This document shows, in pieces, positions 1,799-20,565 of a stretch of 32,000 nucleotides of DNA (positions within the stretch are counted from its first letter, which is position 1; each line of letters begins with the position of its first letter). The translations under genes were made by a program, and so were the position numbers. This stretch comes from Candidatus Saccharimonadota bacterium (GTDB taxonomy: Bacteria > Patescibacteriota > Gracilibacteria > BD1-5 > UBA2023), in assembly GCA_963706795.1 (NCBI GenBank), contig OY970170.1, positions 930,001-962,000 of the forward strand. Reading direction: 5' to 3'. Under the pieces are notes generated by a model, which was not told where the DNA came from, did no database searches, and saw only the letters and a program-made list of their open reading frames with translations.

Positions 1799-2398
1799 TT
1801 AGTCCTTTATCTCGTATTTCAGAGATTTTGGCTGGCCCGAGGGCAGTTCTATGTGTTCAACATCGTCAGCTGGTGTAGCTATTTCCGGCTGAGGTACTTC
1901 TGTGGAAGCTTCTTGAAATTGGAACATTGCCTTGATGGCCTCCATTGCATCAGATACATCCTTCCACTTAATGGTCCCAAGCATCTCTAAAATTGAATGC
2001 TCGGTGTCATTAAAATAGGCGATAGCAACAATCTTACTGCCATCCTTTCTTTCTTTTACTGCAATCACCATAATGAGGTCATATGCAGTCTCTGGCGCAA
2101 ATTCATCATAAGCCCAATCTCCAAGAATATTTTCCGAAGATTGAGCAACTTTCAGTGCAAGTTCTTTAGCGATGTTGTTTAATTCAGCTGTGTCGCCTTG
2201 AATGAGATTTTGAATCTCATTCAAGGCCCGAGTACCATAGTACTCATGAAAAATTGGATCGGAAGCCCCTTGTTGGGGGTATACAATTAAATGAGCAATA
2301 ACAACTTCATCAATTCTAACTACATCATTGTCGACAATTGCACGCTCAAAGACCTCAACTAGCTGTTGAGATATACTACCAGAAAGATTGTAGTTCAT
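1799..2398 (-). CDS. Hypothetical protein (199 aa)
   Basis: Intact ORF from ATG at 2396-2398 to TAA at 1799-1801. AAGGAG lies 6 nt upstream of the ATG (the complement of 2405-2410). I recognise no family. Confidence 0.6.
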   Translation of the reverse strand: MNYNLSGSISQQLVEVFERAIVDNDVVRIDEVVIAHLIVYPQQGASDPIFHEYYGTRALNEIQNLIQGDTAELNNIAKELALKVAQSSENILGDWAYDEFAPETAYDLIMVIAVKERKDGSKIVAIAYFNDTEHSILEMLGTIKWKDVSDAMEAIKAMFQFQEASTEVPQPEIATPADDVEHIELPSGQPKSLKYEIKD

Positions 2399-2493
2399 GA
2401 CTTACTCCTTTGTATTTGTGGATGTTAATTACAGTTCAAGCCCCTTGATTTTGAAGGGGTTGTGGCTCGACAAATATAGTGGGATAGGTTTAG

Positions 2494-5433
2494 TTATCAA
2501 ATTTTGTTTCTCGTGTACAAAATTTCTAATTCATTCTCTAATCGATTGATGACCTTATCTTGAACACCAATTCATAAAAGCCTTTCTTTTAATTCGCTCA
2601 TTCTTTCCTCTATACCTCTAGTGTTATAGATGCGTCACTTATCGTAGGGGCTTTTAGGAAAAGTATACGAGGCTGATAAAATATTTCTTAAAATCATCCA
2701 TAATTCTTCATTCAAAAGATATTTTTTTGATTTTGTGATTCAAATACACAAAAGAAATACTTTCTTATCAATACTAATATTCTCAGTATTCTGTATATTT
2801 CGTAATTTTTTAAAGAATATTTTCCTTCGTTTCCTTTGAAATCTGAATCCAAATTTACGTCCGTAATCATTGCAAAAGTCCTGAATATAATTTTCGAGAA
2901 AGAATCCTCGAACACTGCTAATGCCTTTAGTAAACCATCTTTGAATTAATCGAGATTCCAGCTCTCTGCTTAAGATTTTCTCTTCAAATCAAGTATAAAT
3001 TGAGCGCTTCTCAAAAGATAATTTAAACATAGAACTCAAAGTATGCCACACACTTTTGCGTATTTGATTGTCATATAATAGTGCTATTTTCCCTGAATCT
3101 TCAATGCTGATGAGTGCCTGTACCCATCAATTAATATCAGATAATCTAAGTCTGTAGGCACTATAAATACCATCCTCTTTCATTAGATCAATCTTCGTAT
3201 CGTCAGGAAGCATTGTAAGTAGAAAATTTGCTACTTCTGGTTGTAGTGGTTTAAGTCTAGAGAGTGGATTGTCATCGATAGCTCGATTAGCATAGAAGAA
3301 CTCATTTGTAAGTGTTCTTTGTCTTGCTAGGTTTTTTGCAACAAAGTATTCAAAAAAACTTTTGTGCATAAATTGCAGACTGCCTACCGAATCTCGATAA
3401 ATGAGATTTAATCTCTCAAGGAGCTCACTATTCTCTGGTGTTAGATTTTTAATCTTTGGAGACGCTCTTAATTCAAATCTCTCCATTGCAAACCTCTCAA
3501 GTATTTCCATATCCCCATTTAACTCTTTTGCAGCGCGTTTACTATCCTTCTGATAGCGGCGCTCAGTTTTTTCACGATCATGTATAACGAGGATAAGCCT
3601 AATGATCGTTTCGTATAGTTCGGCAATATTAGTTATTTCAGCAATTCATTTAACTTTAAAGTCTTGCCATTGTTCAGTTGGTATGGCACTTTCATTGCTT
3701 AGCAGCTGAATGAAAGTAAGTAGTAAAGGATTGTATTCAAGATGATTTTCATAAATTAATGATAGTCTTTGTTGTATTATTGTAAGTGCTTTTTTATTAG
3801 TAATGCGTTCCTCAAAATACTTTCTTAAATCTAGTGCCTTAAGAGCATGCTTTTTAAGACTTCAGATTGTTTTTAGTCAATCTGGACGACTAGTTATTAG
3901 AATGCTGATCTCACCTTCCTTGCTTAGTAGCTCTATATAATCCAGAAATAACTCACGAATTTCATCAACTGCAATTTCATCAATTCAGTCTATACAAAGA
4001 ATGTTTGCACCATAGAATTCCTTTTTCATGTATTCCCCCGCTTCAGATAGAGTTTCAATTACATTGAATTCCTTCGCCTCAAAGAAGCCTATTTTTTTAT
4101 GAGGGTATTGCATCAAAAGATCATATACAGTACTTGCTAACCATACAGTCTTTCATGCTCATACAATGTCCGTAAGTTGATATTGTTGTATACTTGCAAA
4201 TTGATTTCAGAATATTTCTTGTGTAAATTCCTTTTCGTTACTATTGAGATAGGTATTATGTGGTATTGCGATAGTGCGTTCAATAACAGATCTTCTCCCG
4301 TATTTCCGTATACCTGGATCGATCGAACGCTTAAAAATACTATTTACCTGATCAAGAGTTGCAGCTTTTTCCAAGAGATTCTCATATAAATCAAGAGCTT
4401 TCTTTGACTCAAATATACCTTTAAATTCTCCACGTTGTTCTAGGGTGAGTTTGGAAAAGTAAGTAAGTAGAATAAAGAAGTAATCTATATCTTTTTTTAT
4501 ATTCTCTATTAGAATTTCAAGATCCTTATTATTTAACTCTAATAATTGAGCTCGTTCAGTAAACTTTTTTAAAGTTTCCAGAAATCCTTTTTCTAAACAG
4601 ATAGCTAGACAAATCGTACGGAGTTCTGGAGGAGTTTCTGTACTAAGGAGATACTCATGGGAGAGCTCGGGATTACTGTGAAGTGATGTATTGATATGAT
4701 TCTGTAAATCCAAAATATTATCAATTTTCTCCGAGGTGTATTTTTTTAGAATACTAAAATTCTCGGGGAAAACCTTTAATTGAGATGAGTTTTTTTCTCA
4801 TCCTATATCCCAAGATAAGTATCATTTACTTTCGAATTCTTCCTCACTTCAATTGCTTGAGATATCTGCAAAGCCTCCACTCATCATAAAGGAATGTGCA
4901 TGACTTCTACTTCAAAATAATACATAAGTATATCATGACTTCCGCTCAGCATAGAACTCGCTCAGTATGCTATCAATTTCTATCCCAGCATGTGCAGTTG
5001 ATTTTAGTCGTGAACCATTTTTACTTGGATTAATGGGAGTCTTAACATACTGGATATTGATGTGTGGATAATTTGAAACAATCCAGTCTATTGACTGTCT
5101 AATTCTTAGTTTACACTCGGCTTTTGGTGGCAATAAAAGAATGGTTTTCTCTCATCAGAATAAAGTGTCAAAAAGTGTAATATCTTCTGGCGTAAGCAAA
5201 CCTTCATCAATACTGAGTGCATCGTCATATGCTGCTAATTCGTGATAGGTATCTGTGTCAATAATTGCGCTATCTAATAATGAGAGAATCTTCCTCTTTT
5301 TCTCATCATATATCTGCTTGTTGGTATCTAGCTTAATTGGTAGATGTCGCAATAAAAATATCTTTCCCTCTGTCAATAAAGGAAGGACTTCATTTTGAAG
5401 AGGTAATTCATTAGGTCAAAATGCGCTAGACAT
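2494..5433 (-). CDS. NACHT/STAND P-loop NTPase, about 979 aa, with unassigned N-terminal (about 390 aa) and C-terminal (about 330 aa) regions
   Basis: A single frame is open from ATG 5431-5433 to TAA 2494-2496 once about 20 in-frame TGA codons are read as Gly. This joins track ORFs 5155..5376, 4933..5133, 4207..4713 and 3127..3510. It has a Walker A-like IVGAGKTVW in which both Gly are TGA (4159-4161 and 4153-4155). It has a Walker B ILCIDGIDE with Gly as TGA at 3985-3987. The NACHT-typical motif FMHKSFFEYFVA follows downstream. No TAA or TAG occurs across 2.9 kb of AT-rich DNA. Confidence 0.7.
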
Positions 5434-5468
5434 ACTAGGAATTTACCATATTGAGCGATTCTTGGCAA

Positions 5469-7106
5469 TTACAGAGTATATACAACTCCAATGGGTAGGC
5501 TAGCACTTACAAATTCAAAATCGAATGAAGAAACATTTCCTTTGCAGTTTAAAATCAATTCTTCTTCCTCCGCTTTTAAGAATCTCACAAGTGGGGAAAT
5601 AATCTTTGAGGCCATTTCACTTTTGCTGTTTCTATAGGATGAATGAGGAAGATCGCTGTTCTTTATCTTAAAGTTTCTCGTCTTGATGAGATTGATAATA
5701 AGTTCAGTTGTCGCTTTTTGTGAAGGAATATGCTTGGAATCTAGAGCCCTTCATTTGAAGAAGATTTTTCAAGTATGTTCATCAAATAGCAGTGCATTTT
5801 GAACCTCAGATACATTGTCACAGTAAAGTTTTTCTGCATTGAAGAACTCGATGTAATGTATTTTTTGAGAATAAACTGGGTGTAGAACACCATCAGATCT
5901 AAATTGCTCGATACGCAGATTTCGATCTTCTCTTCATTTATCTAAGAATGAGGCGTATTCAATGCGTATTCAAGGATAGAGTGTTTTTACCTCCTCAAAT
6001 GCTTCGAGAAAGGTGTTTTGTCCAATTCAACGTTCTAGAAAGAATGCGTAAGAGCCACCGCTGTTTGAGCTATACATTGGTATAAAACCAAATTCTTCTC
6101 TCATGTTTGTGCGCTTTTTTGAAAATGTGAACTGCATAGCTTCCGTTAGTCCCTGACTTTCGTAAATAGTGCTAATAAGGGCTGCGAGTGAATTGATGTT
6201 TGAGATAAATTTGGTCCCATAGGCATCATTTGAATCACTAGCTACAAGATCCTTCAAAATTTGAATATTATTGCAAGATAGTGCTGTATAAACTTCTTGA
6301 TAGGCTGCACTGAGGTTTTTGACTACAAAACCTTCTTTCTCGGCTGAAAGTTCCAATTCTTTAAAAACACTTTCATTGTTTTTTCGATTTTTTTCAAGAA
6401 ATGTCGTGTCAGTTTTGGTGCCTGAAAAAATAATTCAGAAATCCAATGGAATTTTTCCTAGGTCTGAATCTTTGACTTCAGTAAGATGATAATGGTCTTT
6501 TATTTTTTCACAGAAAGCTAGTCAGTCGTAGTTTTGAAGGGAATGAATAGAATTCTCGCCAATGCTATTTTGGTGCTTTGAGATGAGCTCTAATTCCTTT
6601 GCAAGTTCGTATTTGCTCTGTATATTCTCGTTTCAGTTTAGAACATCAAACAAACGAAAAACCCCTTCTGCAATAAGTCCTCAAACTAATCCTGAAAAAC
6701 CGAAACAATGCCCTCGTGGTATCTCTGTAAGAATTTCAATAGATACACGTCAAGTAATTCCAGAATTTGCTAAGTACCTATCAATAATTTTTTCTAGCTC
6801 CTGAGTTTGAGAGTTAATCTCATGCATGTTAACTTCTTCAAAGGCATCTCTGTGGATATCGAATTGAGTTACTGCTGTAATTTTAGATACCTGCTCTTTG
6901 ATTTCTTTCATTCCAACAAAGCCGCGTAAGTAAGTCTTACTCTTTGCTATAGGGTAATCTCATGTAAATCCATGAATTACTGAGCCCCATCACATACTAA
7001 AGGGAGTACTAACCACCAGATCATTTCGCAGAAAAAATTCCTCGTATTTTTTAGTGAATCTAATCTGTAGGTGTTCCGAAGTCATTTTTTGCCTTAATGT
7101 AGTCAT
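5469..7106 (-). CDS. GHMP-kinase-like domain fused to a C-terminal OmpR/PhoB-type winged-helix-like domain (about 545 aa)
   Basis: The frame is open from ATG 7104-7106 (alternative ATG at 7083-7085) to TAA 5469-5471 with TGA read as Gly. It includes track ORF 6027..6356. GHMP-like motifs are STPFSMGWGSVIHGFTGDYPIA (motif I-like), EIPRGHCFGFSGLVGGLIAEG (motif II-like, P-x-G-x-G-x-S) and MYSSNSGGSYAFFLERG (motif III-like). The C-terminal segment is IPSQKATTELIINLIKTRNFKIKNSDL...ASKIISPLVRFLKAEEEELILNCKGNVSSFDFEF. It resembles the trans_reg_C pattern (Lt..E..LL..L ... rv.i.rLRkKl ... GY.f). Confidence 0.6.
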
Positions 7107-7114
7107 ATTTCTGA

Positions 7115-7120
7115 ATTATA
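7115..7120 (-). promoter_or_regulatory. Candidate -10 box (perfect TATAAT on the minus strand) 8 nt upstream of the ATG at 7106
   Basis: The plus-strand sequence attata at 7115-7120 is TATAAT on the minus strand, with only tcagaaat between it and the ATG. That geometry fits a leaderless or near-leaderless mRNA. I found no good -35. Confidence 0.35.
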
Positions 7121-7216
7121 TTTCAGTGCATTGTATAAAGTTTTAGATGAGTCTCATCATTTTTCGTGAATTTTTCCTAAGATTTCCTGCTTGTTGGTAT
7201 ACTATATCTACTAAAT

Positions 7217-7963
7217 ATGATCCATATGAATAGCAGTCTTAATCACTCAGAATATCTTATAAAAGTCGGAGAAGATTGAGTTCTTATCCCTGATCTTATT
7301 GAGAAGAAAAAAGCTCATATAGAAGGCATTCTACATCCAACTGAGCATGTCTGGATCTATAATACCTCTGGGTGAATCTTGTTGCAAAAACGACCGCACA
7401 TACCAGGTAAATCGAATTCCTGAAAGCTCGATGTGTCAGTAGCCTGACATACATCTACGACCCTATCTGTAGAGGAACTTGTATCTACACTGCCTGATTA
7501 TTCCTCCTCTTGGGAATTTCGCAGACAATCGGCTATCCGTGAAATTAATGAAGAGTTGGTGGATTCACTTACTATCCAAGAAGAAAAGTTATGTTGTATT
7601 TGAGTTTACAGGGTAAATAACCTGTGAATTTGAAACAATGAACACGTTCTCCAATATATATTGGAGAGTTCAGATAATTTTCAAATGCTAGATTTTGATA
7701 AAGTGGAAGTTGGGGGCTTATATGAGGCATCTATGTTTGCCTTGGAGTCAGATATTCTCTTGAAAGAGAATTATGTGTTTGATCTCGTCACCCGCGATCC
7801 TCACTACTACGCGCCGATCTTTCGAGCTATCCGTTCTCGTCTCTGATTGCAGCCAAATAAGGAGTTCGAAGACTTCGTCCTCCGCACTCCAAAAATTACT
7901 CCTGACTTTACCCCAGTAGTGCTCTCTACCTCCTCAGCCAACTCCTCGGAAACAGATTCTTAA
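7217..7963 (+). CDS. Nudix hydrolase of the IDI-like (COG1443-type) subfamily
   Basis: The CDS runs from ATG 7217 to TAA 7961-7963 with seven in-frame TGA read as Gly. Sequence: HVWIYNTSGGILLQKRPHIPGKSNSGKLDVSVAGH....AIREINEELV (Nudix box REINEEL). Upstream lies TGgTATACT (7195-7203), an extended -10 candidate. The last 39 codons follow a TGA at 7844-7846 and overlap the convergent rsmF-like gene. Confidence 0.7.
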
Positions 7964-13156: not shown

Positions 13157-13454
13157 GTGGAAAAAGTAACAAAAAAGAATTTGTGCTGGCCAAATTCTCG
13201 TAACGCAAGGAGTATATGGAGAGATGTGGAAATCTCAAGAAAAAACATGGATTTTGTTCGTGCGTTTTCTTATCAGGTGAGTGATAGGGGATTGATCGCA
13301 GCTTTTGCTCTATAGGATGCAATTATTACTGGATTATTAATTTCTTAATCCAAATTTAAATTCTATTTTGACAATTCGTCAGGTTTTTTGAATATCGACT
13401 GTACTTTCAGATACGCGATCTCGAAACGAATATTCAATCAAAAAGGAATTCCTT

Positions 13455-14345
13455 ATGTTTAATAACAAAATGATTATGGGTGCAATAATGAGTGTATTCT
13501 TGCTTCTTACTGGCTTTTTTGTAGTACAGAATCAAGAGGCGACTCATCGGGTAGATACGAATGTACAAGAGAAAAACACTCAAGCACACTCAAATCCTGC
13601 ACACTCAAGCTCAAATCAAACGTCTGCAACTGGTAGTTGGGGTTCATCTCCATTTGGAAGTGGACAAACAGTCGCTCTTCACTCTCAGCCAGCAAATACA
13701 CACTTCCAAAAATCCAATCTCGAATGGAAATCAAGAACCATCCAACTCAAGGACGGAAGATCGGTTACCTATGAGTTTGGTAAAGGAAATCCTTCAGAAG
13801 TTGCTCTGACTACCGACCAGATAAAAGTAGCCTACAAGAGTTGTAGTGGGGGTATAGATGGTGAGTTTTGTTCGGAAGATTCGGGCTATATCTCGCCCGA
13901 GGTAGAATCAAATCTCCTTGCTGCTCTTGGGGATCCTAATTGGCAGACACTTTTGGAGAAATGTAGTCAGCAGCTTAAAGTGCAAGAGCCATTCAATGAT
14001 TCGCGAAACAAGGGCGTACTTACGTATGCTCAGGTTTTTAGTCCGGAGTATCGTGAGATAGAAAAGTGGATTACTGTAGACATAACAACTGGAAGAAAAG
14101 CTCTAAATATTGATCGTGTATCTCATCTTTATAAGTGGTTATACGTCAGTACTGATGTAGTTCAGAAGGCATATAGTGGTACAGATTCTGCACTGCAGAT
14201 TACCTCTGATTGCGTGGATGTGTATGGAAAAGAAATTCTGCGTCGTCTTCTCGTAGCTGAAACATACTATCGAAGACCGCCAGGAGTATTCTGACCTCTT
14301 CCCAAGAAATGGCTAGATCCAAAATTGTATAAAATTATTGAATAA
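13455..14345 (+). CDS. Hypothetical secreted or membrane-anchored protein
   Basis: ATG at 13455 is followed by an N-terminal hydrophobic helix (IMGAIMSVFLLLTGFFVV). TGA at 14292-14294 is read through for 16 more codons to TAA at 14343-14345. I recognise no family. Confidence 0.6.
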
Positions 14346-14379
14346 ACCAAGAAAGGAGGGGTCTATGATGTAAGTGAAT

Positions 14380-14388
14380 TGCTATAAT
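14380..14388 (+). promoter_or_regulatory. Extended -10 promoter element TGcTATAAT
   Basis: A perfect TATAAT at 14383-14388 is preceded by TGc. It lies 38 nt upstream of the GTG start of the CHAP gene, whose AGGAG sits at 14414-14418. Confidence 0.5.
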
Positions 14389-14425
14389 TTCGTAGTTTCT
14401 CATTTTCAATTCTAGGAGTCTTATT

Positions 14426-15145
14426 GTGAGTCGTTCTTATATCTCTGCTGTTGTTCTTGCAGTATTTGCACTTTTTTCTCAACCAGCTTCGTCGGCTGTA
14501 CAAGTTGCACCGGCAAATCGGGTAAATCTTTTCCTTGATAGTGCAAGTCCATTTACCACAAATGACTGGACTGTTGGTGTTATGGGATCTGTAAATGTGA
14601 AAATTCTCAAGTCCACAGCAAATAGCGTGGATAATTTTCTTGCTGCTATGAACGCTGCTGATATTGGTATTTCTGATGGCAAACGCTTTAAGTATGATCC
14701 ACAATTTTTTGTGGATTCAGCCTATGCGAGGGTTAATGATACAAAGAGTATTTATACTGGTCAATGTGTCGATTTTGCTAAACTCATGATCAGTAACTCT
14801 TCTGCAACGAGCTCATGGCATGCTGGTAAGAGCTTGGCAACTATTCCAAATAATCAACTTGCAACCTCCGTTGTTCCAGGAACAATGATTGCCTATTTCG
14901 CTGGACTTTCTACGTATCCTGCTAAAACAGGGCATGTAGCTATTGTCCTTAGTTGGCTCTTTGATGCTAATGGAAAACCACTTGGCGTGAATGTGGTTGA
15001 TCAAAACTTTTTGCTCTCATCAGTTACAGTCAATGGTGTCAACAAGGGTGTAATGGATCAAACCATATCCAAGCACTTTTTGCCATGGACAGGCAGTTCG
15101 AACGTTGGTAGCGCCAGCAAGTACAACATCGTTGATCTCTACTAA
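14426..15145 (+). CDS. Secreted CHAP-domain protein (putative peptidoglycan amidase/endopeptidase)
   Basis: GTG start at 14426 with AGGAG 7 nt upstream. It has a signal peptide (AVVLAVFALFSQPASSAVQ). The CHAP-like catalytic residues are the Cys in YTGQCVDFAKLMI and the His in TGHVAIVLSW. It ends in TAA at 15143-15145. Confidence 0.7.
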   Translation: MSRSYISAVVLAVFALFSQPASSAVQVAPANRVNLFLDSASPFTTNDWTVGVMGSVNVKILKSTANSVDNFLAAMNAADIGISDGKRFKYDPQFFVDSAYARVNDTKSIYTGQCVDFAKLMISNSSATSSWHAGKSLATIPNNQLATSVVPGTMIAYFAGLSTYPAKTGHVAIVLSWLFDANGKPLGVNVVDQNFLLSSVTVNGVNKGVMDQTISKHFLPWTGSSNVGSASKYNIVDLY

Positions 15146-15208
15146 AACAAAAACACATAAAATTTACTTTCTTATTTACATCTGTAAGTAGCGAAAGAGA
15201 TTATTTTA

Positions 15209-15233
15209 CTGCCACAGTATGTGGCAGTTTTTT
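15209..15233 (+). terminator. Intrinsic terminator
   Basis: Stem ctgccac/gtggcag (15209-15215 with 15221-15227), followed by TTTTTT. Confidence 0.75.
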
Positions 15234-15257
15234 GTTGTATCTTCATGTCCCCACTTT

Positions 15258-15285
15258 TTGCATTGCTAACAACATATGGTAAAAT
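15258..15285 (+). promoter_or_regulatory. Candidate sigma70-type promoter
   Basis: TTGCAT (15258-15263), a 16-nt spacer ending in TGg, then TAAAAT (15280-15285). It lies 29 nt upstream of the ATG at 15314. Confidence 0.45.
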
Positions 15286-15313
15286 TCAGGCGTTTTATTC
15301 ATAAAAATTATCC

Positions 15314-16348
15314 ATGCAGAATAGCAGTAATTCGACGAATGTCGGACCAGAAGAGAACGAAATGCTCGGCTTTGCAGAGCAAATCCGAGCTGGATGAGTG
15401 CCAAAAATCTCACAGTGGTTTACGCGTTTTGGTGAGTACAGAACACGCGCCATAGCAATTTTGCGAGATGATCAAGGGAATTTTCAGGATCCCACTGCAT
15501 TTATTAGCGCTCCAACAGATGAGGAAATAACTTCAGACGCAAACGAAGTGGCTACTCCTGCAGAAAACAAAAAAATTATCTCAAAAGAAGATCAGGCAAC
15601 TGTTGCCGAATATATGCGCTTAGAAGCGATCATTGTCGGACTCGCTCAAAATGCTTGGGATTGGCGAAAGGCAAATCCTGATGTTTCAGCGACTCCTCCT
15701 GCTACAGGACTCGATCAGATGCTATTTTTTGATACACTTGGTGAAGACGAAGAAACCATGAAAGCTGTCTATCACCTCATCGTTGAAGGTCGGCTTAGTA
15801 GTAAGTTGTTTGATCTCAAGGCCGGAGATAAGGCGCTCTATGCAAATGGAGTGAGGCACGGTGACGGTATTGCCGAAAAGGATCGTCTCATTAATGAAGT
15901 TCAAAAGCTCGCTCAGGCCCTCTTTATAGAAAATGATACTCAGATTGGAGGGGTCGGAGCTACACTCGCTCGTATCCACGAATACCGATCTCGTGCTGCT
16001 GATATTTTGCGAGATGGCGATGGATTTAAAGATTCAGACACTTTTATGAATGCTAAGGAAAGCAGGGAAGAAGATAAGAAAGTTGTCGCTGAATATCTCA
16101 GAATGCAGACCGAAATGCACCAGAAGACCGAATCTGGTATGGATGCAGCAATCTTCGAAGATACAACAGATCGCGAAAATTACGAAGGAGTCATGTTAGG
16201 CGAAGCCCTCTCAGATGCAGTCTTCAAGGGTACAGAAGTACCAAATGATGTACGTACTCGAGAGTCAGATCGTGACGTCATGGCTGACTGATACCAAAAT
16301 CTCGTCGCAAAGGCAGTAGCTGAAGAAGCGGCTAAAAAAGCTGAGTAG
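15314..16348 (+). CDS. Hypothetical acidic protein with an internal two-fold module duplication
   Basis: The CDS runs from ATG 15314 through TGA at 15395-15397 and 16289-16291 (both read as Gly) to TAG at 16346-16348. Two modules are related: FGEYRTRAIAILRDDQGNFQDPTAF...VAEYMRLEAI and IHEYRSRAADILRDGDGFKDSDTF...VAEYLRMQTE. Confidence 0.6.
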
Positions 16349-16371
16349 TCCGTATTTGTGTCACAAAAACT

Positions 16372-16412
16372 AATCAGAGAGTTTATTTAAAATAAATTAC
16401 TCTGATTTTTTT
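16372..16412 (+). terminator. Intrinsic terminator (long loop)
   Basis: Stem aatcagag/ctctgatt (16372-16379 with 16400-16407), followed by TTTTTTT. The 20-nt AT-rich loop lowers my confidence. Confidence 0.55.
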
Positions 16413-16459
16413 GATGCCGTCAATCTCATTTTTCGCACGCATGCAATGTCTGTGATAGC

Positions 16460-17380
16460 ATGAAACACATGAACTACACAAAAACAAAAATTCTTACAGC
16501 GCTTTTGCTCCTGTTATCAATGAATGCAGGATGGGCGACCTCATCCGTATTTGCCGAAACTCCGGTCGATGACTACGAAGAAATCCAGCTTATTGCGACT
16601 GCGTACTATTCGCCGCTTCCAAATCAGTCATTTTATTTGCGTGGGAGCTATGAAGGCGATCTTCGTCTCAATGGTAATGGTACCAATGGTGCGAGCGGGA
16701 AAGAAGTATTTATCGGGATGCTCGCTGCACCAAAAACCTATGATTTCGGAACAAAAATCTGGATCGAATGACTCGGTGTTGGATCGGTAGAAGATCGAGG
16801 TGGCGCGATTGTGCCAGCAGGGCAGCGCGGATACCAGCACGATCGTGTCGATATCTGGATGGGATCAGGTGAGCCAGGTCTCAGACGTGCTCTCAAATGG
16901 GGAAAGCGCACAGTAAAAGCGCGAATATATAATTCACCCGAAATCGCGGGTCCGATTGCTTTTAGTCTGCCACCAGTGCCTGCAGGGACGGCACCCGTAA
17001 AGAGTATCGCAGCAAAGACCATCGAGCCAACAGTCGAAGAAAAAACCGAACTCGATGCCAAGCTCGAAGCCTTTCATAAAGAAGAAGCAAAGATCCGCAA
17101 GAAGTTCGAAGCAATCGATACGCCGACTCTTGGTGAATCATCGCAGGATGTACGACTTATCCAGGAAGTGCTCATCGAACTTGGATATTTTGATCGCAGA
17201 TCCACGGGAATCTTTGGTGAATACACCGTCGATGCCATTGCCCGTTTTCAGATTGACCACAAACTCGTCCTCGGTAAGAGCGATCCAAATGCTGGCAAGC
17301 TTGGAAAACTTACCCGCGACAAGCTCATCTTCGCCACTCTTCTAGAAGGAATTGATATCGAAGAAATTGCGGCACACTAA
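16460..17380 (+). CDS. Secreted 3D-domain protein with a C-terminal PG_binding_1-like domain (putative cell-wall lytic enzyme)
   Basis: ATG at 16460 is followed by a signal peptide. TGA at 16769-16771 joins track ORFs 16460..16771 and 16811..17380, which share a frame. The 3D-like core is GTKIWIEGLGVGSVEDRGGAIVPAG...HDRVDIWMG. The PG-binding-like repeat is GESSQDVRLIQEVLIELGYFDRRSTGIFGEYTVDAIARFQ. It ends in TAA at 17378-17380. Confidence 0.7.
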
Positions 17381-20300
17381 TCTCCGTGTGTTCAAGACAT
17401 GAGCTCTATGACCTTGTTAGCAGCTCATGGGAATCCGCGTTTTGTGAGATTTTGAGGTTGAGGTACGAGCGCTGGAGTCTGAATTTCTGGTTTATGAAAG
17501 GCGAAGCCCTGTCAGAGTAGACCGAGAATATTTGCCATCCAAATTTCTGAGTGATGATGGGGCTCAAGACGCTCCATAGTGCATTTGATTCAGCGTTTAC
17601 GACAACTAATGATCGTATTGAGGAATACTCGCACATTATCACCTTCATTGAGATGAGCTGATCCATCTTCAGCTTCTTTGAGGGCTTTATCGAGCATTGC
17701 GAGCGTGATTTGATCATCTCGCAGAGTTTCTCCGGTTGCTCTAAAATGCGCATCGATGATACTCATACAGATGACGGCAAGCACGCTGAGTGATGGTACA
17801 TATACTTCGTCGAATTTCAGTCCATCGCCTTCTCCATAGAGCCATTCAGGTGTATCATCGACATTGTCGAGTACATACGGGATCGCAGGCTTATCTATGA
17901 GATAGAGCGATTTTAAGAGATTGAAAAGATCGATATAGTTTTTGGCTGGGCCAAAGTCATCCATGGCGATATGTCCGCCAGCTTTTTTCCATGTACGAAT
18001 AGCTTTGAGTGTCGTAGGATCGAGTGTATCTCATTTGCCATCAGCCTGAGGTACGACTTTAAGACCGGCAATTTCGAGGATTTCGAGCGTGACCATACTT
18101 GGTGGAACCTCAAGTCGCTTCAAAAGATCGAGAAGCCAAGGTATTAGCTTACCTAGTTGTTTAAATTCAGCCCGAAATTCATCTCCACGAGTATTGAATC
18201 AGTAGGGTAATCCAAGTTTCTTTCCCTCGATACATGCTAGCTCCATAATCTGTCTCGAAACAGGATGGTACATTTCCAAAAGATCCAAGAATTGGAAAAC
18301 TTCACTCAGTGGAAGCACTTCTCCCGTGAGTGGATCTTTAAAGCGTGCGAGCATCTCAGCTTCACAGGCAATACTTTTTACCTCAGAACCATCTACTTTG
18401 ATAATCTTGTGTTTTTCTTGGTAGACGATGGTGATACCGGTGTTTTTTGGTTCATCAAGAAAGACTCGACGGTAGAGCGCGTAGCGATCAATATGGATGA
18501 ATCGTTCATTGTGCTTGTGTGGACTCTCCTGACGCAATTTTTCGAGCTGCTCAGAAGTTTTCATTCGGACGAATTCTTCGGGGATTGAAGCCTGGAGAAT
18601 GAACTCGTGGATGTGTTTTGCAACAACCTCAATGAGAAGGATGCGGATTTTTTCGTGCTGGACAGGAATTCCATTTTTTTGAGCGAGGATATCACTCTCA
18701 ATGATGGTTGTATTTTCGGCTGGATGCTCAATAAAACCTGAGTAACCAAAGCCGATTTTTTCGCTCGATCTGAGGGCATCACCAAGTTTTTGAGTGCTGT
18801 GTTCTCCGATCGTAACAATCACTGCGCCGTTATAAACGTCAGATATAGCCTTTGCGAGACGATTTAAAAATACAGTCGTATTTGCATGATTCACCTCGTT
18901 TTGTTCGAGCATCTGTGCTCGTATCTCTCATGCAATACGGTCGATCTTGGATCGTATACGTTCTTCGTAACCTCTAAATTCTGCACTGTCTGTGAGACTT
19001 CTAAATCCAGCATTAGGATATCGCTCTGGTGGAAGATCAGGGAAGTTACCGTAGTCGTCGCGGCGGTCGTATCTAAATTCTTCAAAATACTGACGTAAAA
19101 ACGGCGCTCCAGTTTGAATAACCGCTTTTTTACGCACGTCGTTTTTTTCGGCTCAAAGGAGTTTTATTCCTTTGATAAAGCGCAGAATAGTAGGTGTATT
19201 CGTCAGAAGTCTACTCTCTGGAAAATGCAGAGCATGCAGATTGGCGAGTCGGATGCTGATGAGTCCGACGAGGTCAATATGAATAGGGTGGTGTGGAAGC
19301 TGCGACAAATAGGCATCAAGATGTTTGAGTGTCTCTTTCATGCCGTACGCAGTTTCGTAACTCGCATACTCATATCGACGGAGTATCTCCTCAATGGCGA
19401 GCAAAATATATGACTGACAATTGTCCATGTCATGATACCTGTATGCGTCACCCGTATTGCCAAGAAGATTTTTAAGAATCACTTCTAATTGCTCTACTGG
19501 CACACTTCCCTCAGGCAGGTACTTAAAAGTATGTACAAACGCATCGAGCTCGGCTTGATCGGCTGCCTCGAGTCCACCGGACCTGATTTCATGAGGGTTA
19601 TATCGAGGAAGTATCGCAAAAAAATCTGACAGAGCAGTGTGATCTATTCCTTCAAGTTCCATCTCCGGAGAATCTTCGCTTTTTTGTACTCGGCCTCAGT
19701 GAATCATATGAAAAATACGACTCATTACCTCTCTTGCTTCGGTCTTTTTATCTGTGCTCGTTTTTTCAGAGCGCAGAATATTTTGTGCAAGACGGAAAGA
19801 AAGGGTCATTTTATGAGCACTTTCTTGTGTGTTTACAGCTCCAATCTGCTCTAAAAGCAGGCTATTTGATTGCCATAGATCGGTTTCGAGTCCTTCGTGC
19901 CATTCTGTGAGGTAGGCCTTGTAATTATTGATAAAATTATGCCTGATACGAATCCCGAGCGATGTTCATAATGGACTGAGACTTGAGTGTTCGATTTGGT
20001 CTGTAAGCCCCAGGACAGTGTCGTAGATTGCGCGAATTTCTTGTTTTGCAAACGGATCCGGTAGGCGAGTCTCGATAAAATTGATAATACACGAGAAGAG
20101 CTTGCTGATCTTGCCGTAGATAACCTGTTGTTTTACAACATTTGCACCATGTATTTCTCAGAGTGCCTCTCGGATGAAACGAGCAAATACATATTCGCCT
20201 TCGATTTTTGTGAATATTTTTCACTCTGGACATCCAATCAGCCACGCCTTAAAGGCTATGATATTGCGACTGTCATTGGATGCGCTGTGCTTGCGAGAAA

Positions 20301-20565
20301 GATCCGTATCTTGACTCATCCACTCGAGGATTTTTTGTTCGTGTACCAAATCAAAATCCGGATGCATTTCTCTCAAGGGGCTGATTTGCTTCTCTGTTCA
20401 GAGGAAGACAGCATCTTCAAGTTCCGCGATAGCACTCAAAAATTGCGGATCACTCACTTCTTTTTCGGCAAGTGTTTTGAGAATATGGTCGGACTTGTGT
20501 CATGTGACTCACTCGAGGGCCGGTGTTTCTGCCTCAAGTAAGAAGGAGGAATTCACGTAATTCAT
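17377..20565 (-). CDS. Large (about 1062 aa) multidomain protein with a C-terminal EAL-like (c-di-GMP phosphodiesterase family) domain
   Basis: A single frame is open from ATG 20563-20565 to TAG 17377-17379 with about 16 TGA read as Gly. It joins track ORFs 19153..19662, 18928..19137, 18199..18912 and 17590..17964, all in one frame. The EAL-family pattern reads: ..IVYQEKHKII..ACEAEMLARFKDPLTGEVLPLSEVFQFL.., ..VTLEILE.., ..GGHIAMDDFGPAKNYIDLFNLLKSLYLIDK.., ..MERLE.....LGLLGQGFAFHKPE. The N-terminal 600 aa are unassigned, and the start codon is uncertain. Confidence 0.65.

Follow-up and report, generated by a model that had tools for sequence, protein, structure and literature searches.

A NACHT-type protein recurrently paired with a GHMP-kinase-fold protein in bacteria that read UGA as glycine: a possible NLR-like conflict or signaling module

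Results

A three-gene locus read with an altered genetic code

We analyzed a stretch of 32,000 nucleotides from a Candidatus Saccharimonadota bacterium that GTDB places in the Gracilibacteria (assembly GCA_963706795.1, contig OY970170.1, positions 930,001 to 962,000), and we refer to this whole stretch as the window. Two long genes lie on its minus strand: gene A (5469..7106), predicted to encode a GHMP-kinase fold followed by an additional C-terminal domain, and downstream of it gene B (2494..5433), which appears to encode a signal transduction ATPase with numerous domains (STAND) of the NACHT type, laid out like a nucleotide-binding leucine-rich repeat (NLR) protein. A Nudix-family gene (7217..7963, plus strand) diverges from gene A. 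We find that A and B, probably together with the Nudix gene as a third member, form one conserved module that is confined, as sampled, to bacteria in which UGA encodes glycine, namely the Gracilibacteria and their relatives.

Under translation table 11, the segment that carries A and B is split into fragments of at most 196 aa. Reading UGA as sense instead reveals two open frames on the minus strand, at 2494-5442 and 5469-7115, with ATG starts at position 5433 for B and 7106 for A. The two long co-directional genes announced in the original prediction, separated by a 35-nt spacer (5434..5468), were found exactly where they had been placed; gene A comprises 545 aa with 12 UGA codons, and gene B comprises 979 aa with 21. 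We take UGA to specify glycine and not tryptophan because it falls at invariant glycine positions of LigA (RAxEVIPEV and GVExEDVT) and MraY (FMxDVxALALxA). Judged from these positions, genetic code 25 is used here, as had been supposed, and A and B are intact frames under it. Per 1000 codons, A, B, and the Nudix gene contain 21-32 UGA glycine codons and the other genes 0-14.5. The description of the segment as holding only two genes is accurate for the long frames but too narrow otherwise, as the Nudix gene begins one base past the end that had been set and probably belongs with them functionally. The divergent intergenic region between A and the Nudix gene (7107..7216) presumably contains their promoters; promoter and terminator scans remained at chance level, and the promoter-like matches at 7107..7216 did not exceed it.

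Gene B encodes a NACHT-type STAND protein

The gene B product can be divided into an N-domain (residues ~20-205, 4819..5376, minus strand as for all features of A and B), a helical linker (residues 206-415, 4189..4818), a NACHT-type NTPase (residues 416-720, 3274..4188), and a C-terminal region that is presumed to act as a sensor (residues 721-979, 2497..3273). The NTPase is delineated by four motifs: a Walker A sequence, VGAGKT (residues 424-429, 4147-4164); a Walker B sequence, ILCIDGIDE (residues 478-486, 3976-4002); LITSRP (residues 512-517, 3883-3900); and FMHKSFFEYFVA, which is of the FxHxSFxEYFxA type (residues 688-699, 3337-3372). All four occur in this order in B and are conserved throughout the B family.

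Profile searches with the window copy itself return little. For B, scans with Pfam, NCBIfam, and PADLOC models yielded no match above threshold, PDB sequence searches with either the single sequence or the family profile found no match, and a word-indexed search of 5.8 billion clusters found no relative; a metagenome scan recovered one weak match of 2.2 kb. The window protein has no match to the Pfam NACHT model (PF05729), and its near-threshold STAND matches are to NPHP3_N (23.0 bits, cutoff 24.8), DnaA (21.3 bits), and nSTAND5 (19.7 bits). Relatives of B were instead taken from the DNA downstream of A-family genes, at the loci that we number L001, L002, L019, L020, L021, L022/23, L026, L028, and L029. 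The L028 relative exceeds the curated Pfam NACHT cutoff (28.4 versus 26.7 bits) and covers profile positions 3-166 of 167, two further members match NACHT with an E-value of 0.02, and NPHP3_N matches all five of the family members that span that region. Window B is homologous to the NACHT-matching members, with BLASTP E-values from 5e-25 to 1e-7. On the strength of these motifs and homologies, gene B is assigned as a NACHT-type STAND protein, in line with the hallmarks first read from its translation.

Both termini of B had been described as matching nothing recognizable. This holds for the C terminus of the window protein, which belongs to no recognizable family, has no Pfam match, and contains no recognizable repeats, but not for the N-domain, in which a set of RH…R…H motifs had been overlooked. 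In the window copy these read FLLRHLP (5338-5358), LRIRQS (5092-5109), and GSRSHAHS (4891-4914), and the corresponding family motifs, hhxhRH(G), RxxS/T, and hhhhxH(K/R), align over 7 to 10 B members. Their pattern suggests that the N-domain possibly adopts a histidine-phosphatase fold. His_Phos_1 was detected below threshold in two of seven members (best E-value 4.7e-5; in another scan 15.9 bits against a cutoff of 21.7, E-value 0.011), and hhalign comparison of the N-domain with SixA and GpmA gave E-values of 0.02-0.03, as against 0.15-0.46 for controls, with the RHG block alone aligned. We also considered whether the type of N-domain (RHG or RH[LF]P) tracks the subtype of A, and rejected the idea: in L029, a window-type N-domain pairs with the A-family protein P0004, which is no nearer to window A than is P0003, whose partner carries a canonical RHG.

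The linker starts with an LQNxxN motif (4690-4707), the sole internal invariant motif of the family, in which Gln244, Asn245, and Asn248 are invariant in a seven-member alignment; residues 206-415 have no Pfam match. Among the relatives, the C termini differ in kind, with ankyrin repeats in L021 (E-value 1e-26), HEAT-like repeats built on 'IGTPEAIK' in L019, and approximately 570 extra residues in L002. Taken at the level of the B family, these sequences indicate the three-part layout of NLR-like proteins with a C-terminal repeat sensor.

Gene A combines a GHMP-kinase fold with a conserved C-terminal domain

Gene A was similarly refractory to direct searches. Pfam, NCBIfam, and PADLOC scans gave nothing above threshold, PDB sequence searches with the single sequence or the family profile gave only mevalonate kinase matches with E-values near 1, and a scan of a genome collection found nothing. 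The word-indexed protein search, even with a 41-sequence profile, returned one relative, P0001, which is 62% identical over its full length. We used this homolog as a stand-in for A in structure and family searches, and the fold of A is accordingly assigned through its identity to P0001. Exhaustive HMMER searching with P0001 recovered at least 452 cluster representatives, of which 190 reach E≤1e-10; almost without exception they measure 570-620 aa and are matched over their full length. Every named member is listed at NCBI as 'hypothetical protein [Candidatus Gracilibacteria bacterium]'. At conserved glycine columns, the family shows a mixture of Gly and Trp at approximately 2:1 (about a third Trp). 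Such a mixture is what translation of UGA with table 4, as in many database copies of this family, produces, and the whole A family therefore appears to come from UGA-recoded bacteria. Translation with table 11 failed for all 13 members whose contigs were fetched.

An AlphaFold2 model of P0001 built on a 128-sequence alignment reached a predicted local distance difference test score (pLDDT) of 92.7 and a predicted template modeling score of 0.90; the model from the single sequence, with a pLDDT of 35, was unusable. Foldseek comparison of the former with the PDB returned mevalonate kinase (E-value 7e-13), followed by galactokinase, the heptokinase WcbL, and phosphomevalonate kinase (PMK), down to 4e-10. 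These GHMP matches have a probability of 1.00 and TM-scores to the target of 0.55-0.69 over ~400 aligned columns, all within the first ~400 residues. The model thus predicts that residues 4-409 of A (5880..7097) have a GHMP-kinase fold, and the fold named in the original prediction is borne out to that extent.

Two of the glycine-rich motifs of this superfamily, together with an invariant glutamate, are kept across the A family. Motif II of the window protein reads EIPRGHCFGFSG (6690-6725), and motif III reads YSSNSGGSY (6048-6074). The family consensus of motif II is E(100%)-x-P-R-G-H-G-F-G-F-S-G, with the GG positions at 83-93% if W(UGA) is counted as G, and the family profile aligns this block with the SELPPGAGLGSSAA motif of mevalonate kinase. 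By contrast, the catalytic aspartate (of the type of mevalonate kinase Asp204) is not conserved in the A family, its column reading N25/S17/G16 in an alignment made by motif and by eye, and motif I contains no conserved lysine. The Pfam GHMP_kinases_N model gives weak matches in only 3 of 41 members, the best with an E-value of 8.8e-5.

The most conserved part of the family is found in the last ~130 residues of A (residues 414-545, 5472..5867), a domain delimited by the conservation profile and the secondary structure of the model. Its core reads LPxSSYxNSKSEMxSKIIxPL (5589-5651), and Gln463, Lys501, and Pro505 are invariant. In the model, the elements follow as b-b-b-b, H, b, H, b-b-b; an alpha2 helix is missing, and the topology is compatible with a winged helix of the OmpR/PhoB type. 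None of the 41 members matches Trans_reg_C, and a fold search against viral structures gave no significant match that would reveal this domain.

A Nudix partner of the IDI/YfcD-like subgroup

The Nudix gene adjoins A in the window, L001, L002, and L020 and sits between A and B in L029. For four of these five Nudix partners, the best NCBIfam match is isopentenyl diphosphate (IPP) isomerase/YfcD, with E-values down to 2e-19, and we place the gene in the IDI type 1/YfcD-like subgroup. The window copy is itself weak, with a Pfam NUDIX E-value of 0.15 and no NCBIfam match.

These assignments raise the question of whether A and the Nudix protein are simply salvage enzymes for isoprenoid or sugar phosphates, the one a mevalonate-kinase-like kinase and the other IDI-like, in a lineage without the mevalonate and methylerythritol phosphate (MEP) pathways, with the NACHT gene unrelated or only loosely linked. 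The closed genome of a Gracilibacterium lacks both of these precursor pathways, yet phosphorylated isoprenoids are used (PMC6851277). Such a role fits the fact that A has its closest structural match in mevalonate kinase and the Nudix partners theirs, by family, in type 1 IPP isomerase. However, the Foldseek E-values of mevalonate kinase, galactokinase, and heptokinase lie within one to two orders of magnitude of one another, and the position of the GHMP catalytic aspartate is not conserved in A. In all five Nudix partners, moreover, the catalytic cysteine of IDI (NSVCGH) is replaced by alanine ('SxAGH'), and the scores of 28-70 bits fall far under the curated cutoffs of 106-152, or of 106-127 for the IDI type 1 equivalogs. 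Salvage would also leave the extra C-terminal domain of A and the tight, sometimes overlapping linkage of A and B without explanation. Overall, we regard this account as very improbable.

A and B are recurrently linked

To place the pairing in context, we compared 15 distinct genomic settings of A-family genes. In 10 of them, A is followed, directly or past the Nudix gene, by a B-type gene (the window, L001, L002, L019, L020, L021, L022/23, L026, L028, and L029). Other genes follow A in four contexts (L003, L025, L030, and L031), among them a MoxR ATPase in L003 and TsaD in L025. The last, L024, offers 280 bp of downstream sequence only, containing stop codons, and was assigned to neither group. 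In L022, L023, and L026, the stop of A overlaps the start of B at the position of the 35-nt spacer of the window, which is consistent with an operon. The A-B pairing that had been proposed is therefore real and recurrent, occurring in 10 of 15 contexts.

Tandem A paralogs with no B-type gene in view occur in L024 (265-4388; 573 and 572 aa) and L031 (2-3138; a partial protein of at least 430 aa and one of 587 aa), and the A family has thus undergone expansion. In L003 (13525-15767), A is followed by a MoxR-type AAA+ ATPase (AAA_3, E-value 8e-53) and a multi-pass membrane protein, with no NACHT gene; this ATPase and membrane protein may represent an alternative set of partners for A. As a separate observation, the A-Nudix-B cluster of L029 (363-9227) lies beside a CHASE2-guanylate cyclase and a 2235-aa homolog of alpha-2-macroglobulin, both of a sensing or defense flavor.

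In the literature that we searched, no GHMP kinase is paired with a STAND or NACHT protein and no histidine phosphatase is fused to a STAND protein, which agrees with the earlier statement that no pairing of NACHT and GHMP proteins has been described. Neither protein gave a clean match to a housekeeping family, again as anticipated. Three points had escaped notice: the association with the Nudix gene, the presence of RH…R…H motifs in the N-domain of B, and how large the A family is.

The module keeps its position while one half is replaced as a block

The neighborhoods of RsmB-like genes were fetched from 17 genomes, and the window proteins were mapped onto them with code 25. The closest genome, L002, has NusA, TerC, and RsmB proteins that are 97%, 92%, and 78% identical to those of the window, and its gene order (RsmB, Nudix, A, B, a small gene, g1133, and g118) is that of the window; L001 is arranged alike. 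In L003 and L004, with RsmB identities of 54-57%, the A gene still lies beside RsmB. The module is absent from beside RsmB only in more distant genera (L005-L012).

A comparison of L001 with L002 reveals an abrupt replacement within this conserved arrangement. The two are 88.5% identical in nucleotide sequence over L001 positions 1-853, which cover RsmB and the 3' part of the Nudix gene. The following ~3 kb (L001 854-3819) has no nucleotide similarity to L002, and identity returns, at 76%, from position 3820, approximately codon 236 of B. The nonmatching stretch spans the 5' part of the Nudix gene, the intergenic region (the counterpart of 7107..7216 in the window), the whole of A, and the first ~236 codons of B. 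Within B, similarity resumes where the N-domain gives way to the LQNxxN linker.

Protein identities change accordingly. Between L001 and L002, the C terminus of RsmB is 95.5% identical and the B linker 65%, whereas A is only 31% identical and the B N-domains cannot be aligned; between L001 and the window, the corresponding values are 66.5% for RsmB, 38% for the linker, 64% for A, and 50% for the N-domain. Because the identity of A (64%) is close to that of the RsmB C terminus (66.5%), the window and L001 cassettes look vertically related. From these identities, it appears that the L002 lineage received a distant allele, nearer to that of L003 (35%). The replacement indicates that the 5' part of the Nudix gene, A, and the B N-domain work together and that the locus undergoes allele replacement like that of conflict systems. 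The hypervariable gene described in the Gracilibacterium paper of Sieber et al. encodes an unrelated PTD-repeat protein.

The low GC content is a property of the module

The original prediction noted by eye that the segment drops to about one-third G+C (GC), as against 40-45% in the flanking genes, and computation bears this out: sliding-window GC is 0.31-0.37 over 2400-7400 and 0.40-0.50 in the flanks. Relative to the 20 other genes of the window (0.438 ± 0.028), GC is 0.357 in A (z -2.9), 0.334 in B (z -3.7), and 0.405 in the Nudix gene (z -1.2). On the strength of this dip, A and B might be taken as a recently imported, AT-rich foreign defense island specific to this genome. The GC z-scores of A and B, the lack of relatives of B in the word-indexed search, and the replacement of a block in a close relative could all be read in that sense.

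Several observations argue against import. In L001 and L002, the module is found in the corresponding RsmB-flanked slot with its gene order unchanged, and the agreement between the identities of A and the RsmB C terminus is what vertical descent predicts. At the window locus, we found no tRNA, Rfam family, meaningful flanking repeats, or mobility genes such as an integrase, and scans of viral contigs and a tblastn search against phages found no phage or viral copies. In all genomes examined, moreover, the module has a lower GC content than the sequences that flank it, across genomic GC contents of 0.23-0.44: 0.35-0.36 against 0.45-0.50 in L002, 0.31-0.32 against 0.37 in L019, 0.20-0.21 against 0.27-0.29 in L028, and 0.31-0.37 against 0.43 in L029. 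Because the dip recurs in homologous modules, we consider it a property of the module and not evidence of recent import. Synteny thus largely refutes the foreign-island account, which we now hold to be very improbable.

Other features of the window

The gene that follows B (1799-2398, minus strand) encodes a 199-aa protein with no Pfam match. Its sole counterpart in L002 is a collinear, weakly similar gene of 187 aa (L002 18405-18968), and it may be a fast-evolving fourth member of the module or simply a variable neighbor. Within this gene, at 2195-2227, lies a perfect 15-nt inverted repeat with a 3-nt loop, GCCTTGAATGAGATT TTG AATCTCATTCAAGGC.

A second very fast-evolving large gene of the window lies at 17377-20565 (minus strand). 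Its 1062-aa product, with an EAL domain below threshold (27.8 bits, cutoff 31.3) and a normal GC content of 0.438, is 31% identical to the syntenic protein of L002, compared with 97% for NusA. On the plus strand, a run of genes at 13452-17380 encodes secreted-looking proteins, including a CHAP-like amidase/peptidase (14420-15145; 22.6 bits, cutoff 26) and a PG_binding_1 protein (16463-17380; E-value 1.6e-9). These proteins are possible cell-wall-lytic tools for an episymbiotic or predatory lifestyle.

Discussion

A proposed NLR-like conflict or signaling module

We propose that the locus is an NLR-like conflict or signaling module, an interpretation that we judge to be evenly balanced between right and wrong. 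The anatomy of the proteins, the recurrent linkage of A with B and with the Nudix gene, and the block replacement are matters of direct observation, from which a function in defense or signaling is inferred. In such a module, the C-terminal repeats of B would bind a trigger, either a phage- or a host-derived molecule, and the NACHT domain would oligomerize in an ATP-dependent manner, as in other NACHT proteins. Oligomerization would activate the N-domain of B, which would be a phosphatase if the histidine-phosphatase assignment is right and which might act on a phosphorylated small molecule or on A. The A protein would bind or make the same phosphorylated ligand, and its C-terminal domain would relay the signal, possibly to DNA, whereas the IDI/YfcD-like Nudix enzyme would make or remove a related diphosphate compound. 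A ligand shared by A, the B N-domain, and the Nudix protein, or their action on one another, would explain why the three travel together.

A bolder version of this proposal is that the three genes constitute an unrecognized NLR-based immune or host-sensing trio, private to UGA-recoded members of the candidate phyla radiation. Here, the NACHT sensor would control a phosphatase output directed at a small phosphorylated molecule, perhaps an isoprenoid or nucleotide diphosphate, that is shared with A as a mevalonate-kinase-like sensor/kinase and with the IDI-like Nudix enzyme, and the enzyme-facing half (the 5' part of the Nudix gene, A, and the B N-domain) would be swapped as a cassette, with the NACHT core staying in place. 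We offer this version as a speculation that is unlikely to be correct in full.

Several results weigh against a conflict or signaling module built from these parts. The neighbors of A and B in the window are housekeeping and cell-wall genes, not defense genes, and PADLOC-DB 2.0, which includes models for bNACHT, Avs, and other systems, matches neither A nor B nor their relatives, apart from one match due to ankyrin repeats only. No PADLOC model match, defense island, or viral copy was thus found that would bear out the defense function put forward in the original prediction. The four contexts in which A occurs without B, along with the tandem paralogs, indicate that A has a role independent of B. 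The phosphatase signal in the N-domain is below threshold, RHG is replaced by RHL in the window copy, and the L029 copy lacks the second histidine. The DNA-binding-like tail that had been ascribed to A survives as a compatible topology: the hhalign comparison with PhoB/OmpR is collinear over 84 columns, but its probability of 0.45%, below 1%, is not significant. Finally, the block replacement is known from just one set of three genomes, in which L001 is represented by a 4.3-kb contig from automatic assembly.

Some of the same results could be accommodated by a metabolite-responsive regulator with no immune function. In that scheme, A would be a ligand-sensing transcription factor in which the GHMP fold serves as a sensor, as in yeast Gal3p, and B would be an integrator resembling MalT or AfsR that tunes A to a host-derived metabolite in these host-dependent bacteria. 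STAND proteins include transcription regulators, such as MalT and the AfsR/SARP proteins, the latter of which join an OmpR-type winged helix to NB-ARC and TPR domains, combining such a winged helix with a STAND ATPase. Consistent with a regulator, conservation in A is highest in the C-terminal domain, which possibly binds nucleic acids, and the position of the catalytic aspartate is not conserved. The A family is also large, has paralogs, and often occurs without B, and the module holds a fixed position among housekeeping genes, with no defense neighbors and no PADLOC match. Against this, DNA binding by the A tail is putative, B has no DNA-binding domain of its own, and allele replacement at a domain boundary, combined with variable repeat sensors, is more typical of conflict systems. 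We consider a regulator of this kind possible but rather doubtful.

If the conflict or signaling interpretation is correct, the module would be of interest on several counts. Bacterial NLR-like proteins are a current focus of research, as they form a link between the innate immunity of prokaryotes and that of eukaryotes. Those known so far have nuclease, SIR2, TIR, or protease outputs and for the most part act alone. The module described here would add a phosphatase-like output domain, two recurrent partners related to small-molecule enzymes, and a clear case in which the output half has been replaced in place between close genomes. Gracilibacteria are uncultured, host-dependent bacteria with an altered code, and their repertoire for defense and host sensing is almost unknown. 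Standard pipelines miss such families because gene calls made with table 11 or table 4 corrupt them. Families of code 25 lineages are thus systematically under-detected, as illustrated by the single relative of A found by the word-indexed search and the 452 recovered by exhaustive HMMER searching.

Comparison with known systems

The closest parallels to B are found among bNACHT and Avs/AVAST proteins. Like B, bNACHT proteins carry hhhhDGhDE, TSRP, and FxHxSF motifs in a NACHT module at their center, which is flanked by an N-terminal output domain and C-terminal repeats. Even among close relatives, their N-terminal effector domains show sharp differences (Kibby et al., bioRxiv 10.1101/2022.07.19.500537), a variation that parallels the block replacement at the A-B locus. 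Window B differs in that it falls under the Pfam NACHT cutoff, has no PADLOC model, and belongs to a lineage that uses code 25, and the main text of that study names no effector domain with RH…R…H motifs. Avs/AVAST proteins likewise have a STAND ATPase, an N-terminal effector, and a sensor at the C terminus that varies, and they diversify at the level of the locus. Their effectors, however, are nucleases, SIR2 domains, proteases, and others, they have no sequence match with B, and no domain for sensing terminase or portal proteins is recognizable in B.

The STAND transcription regulators MalT and AfsR/SARP are established cases in which a STAND ATPase with helical repeats goes together with an OmpR/PhoB-like topology and the sensing of small molecules, a combination that the module would share. 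In the present case, however, the putative winged helix is carried by a protein distinct from the STAND ATPase and joined there to a GHMP fold, and no DNA-binding domain is present in B. Relative to the GHMP kinases, such as mevalonate kinase and galactokinase, and the noncatalytic sensor Gal3p, A appears to have the same fold, motifs II and III, and a 'GNxSG' block; it differs in having neither a conserved catalytic aspartate nor a conserved motif I lysine and in its extra C-terminal domain of 130 residues.

The N-domain of B recalls the branch 1 histidine phosphatases (SixA and PGAM), as its RHG, RxxS/T, and hhhhxH motifs follow the same order with similar spacing, but its matches are below threshold and concern mainly the RHG block, which reads RHL in the window copy. 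The Nudix partners have their best NCBIfam match in the IDI type 1/YfcD subgroup and differ from type 1 IDI in the replacement of cysteine by alanine and in their low scores, with the window copy matching no model. Overall, the module appears to be of a known kind, that of the NLR-like bacterial proteins, and what is new lies in its N-terminal domain, its two recurrent enzyme partners, its occurrence in a lineage with an altered genetic code, and the replacement of one half as a cassette.

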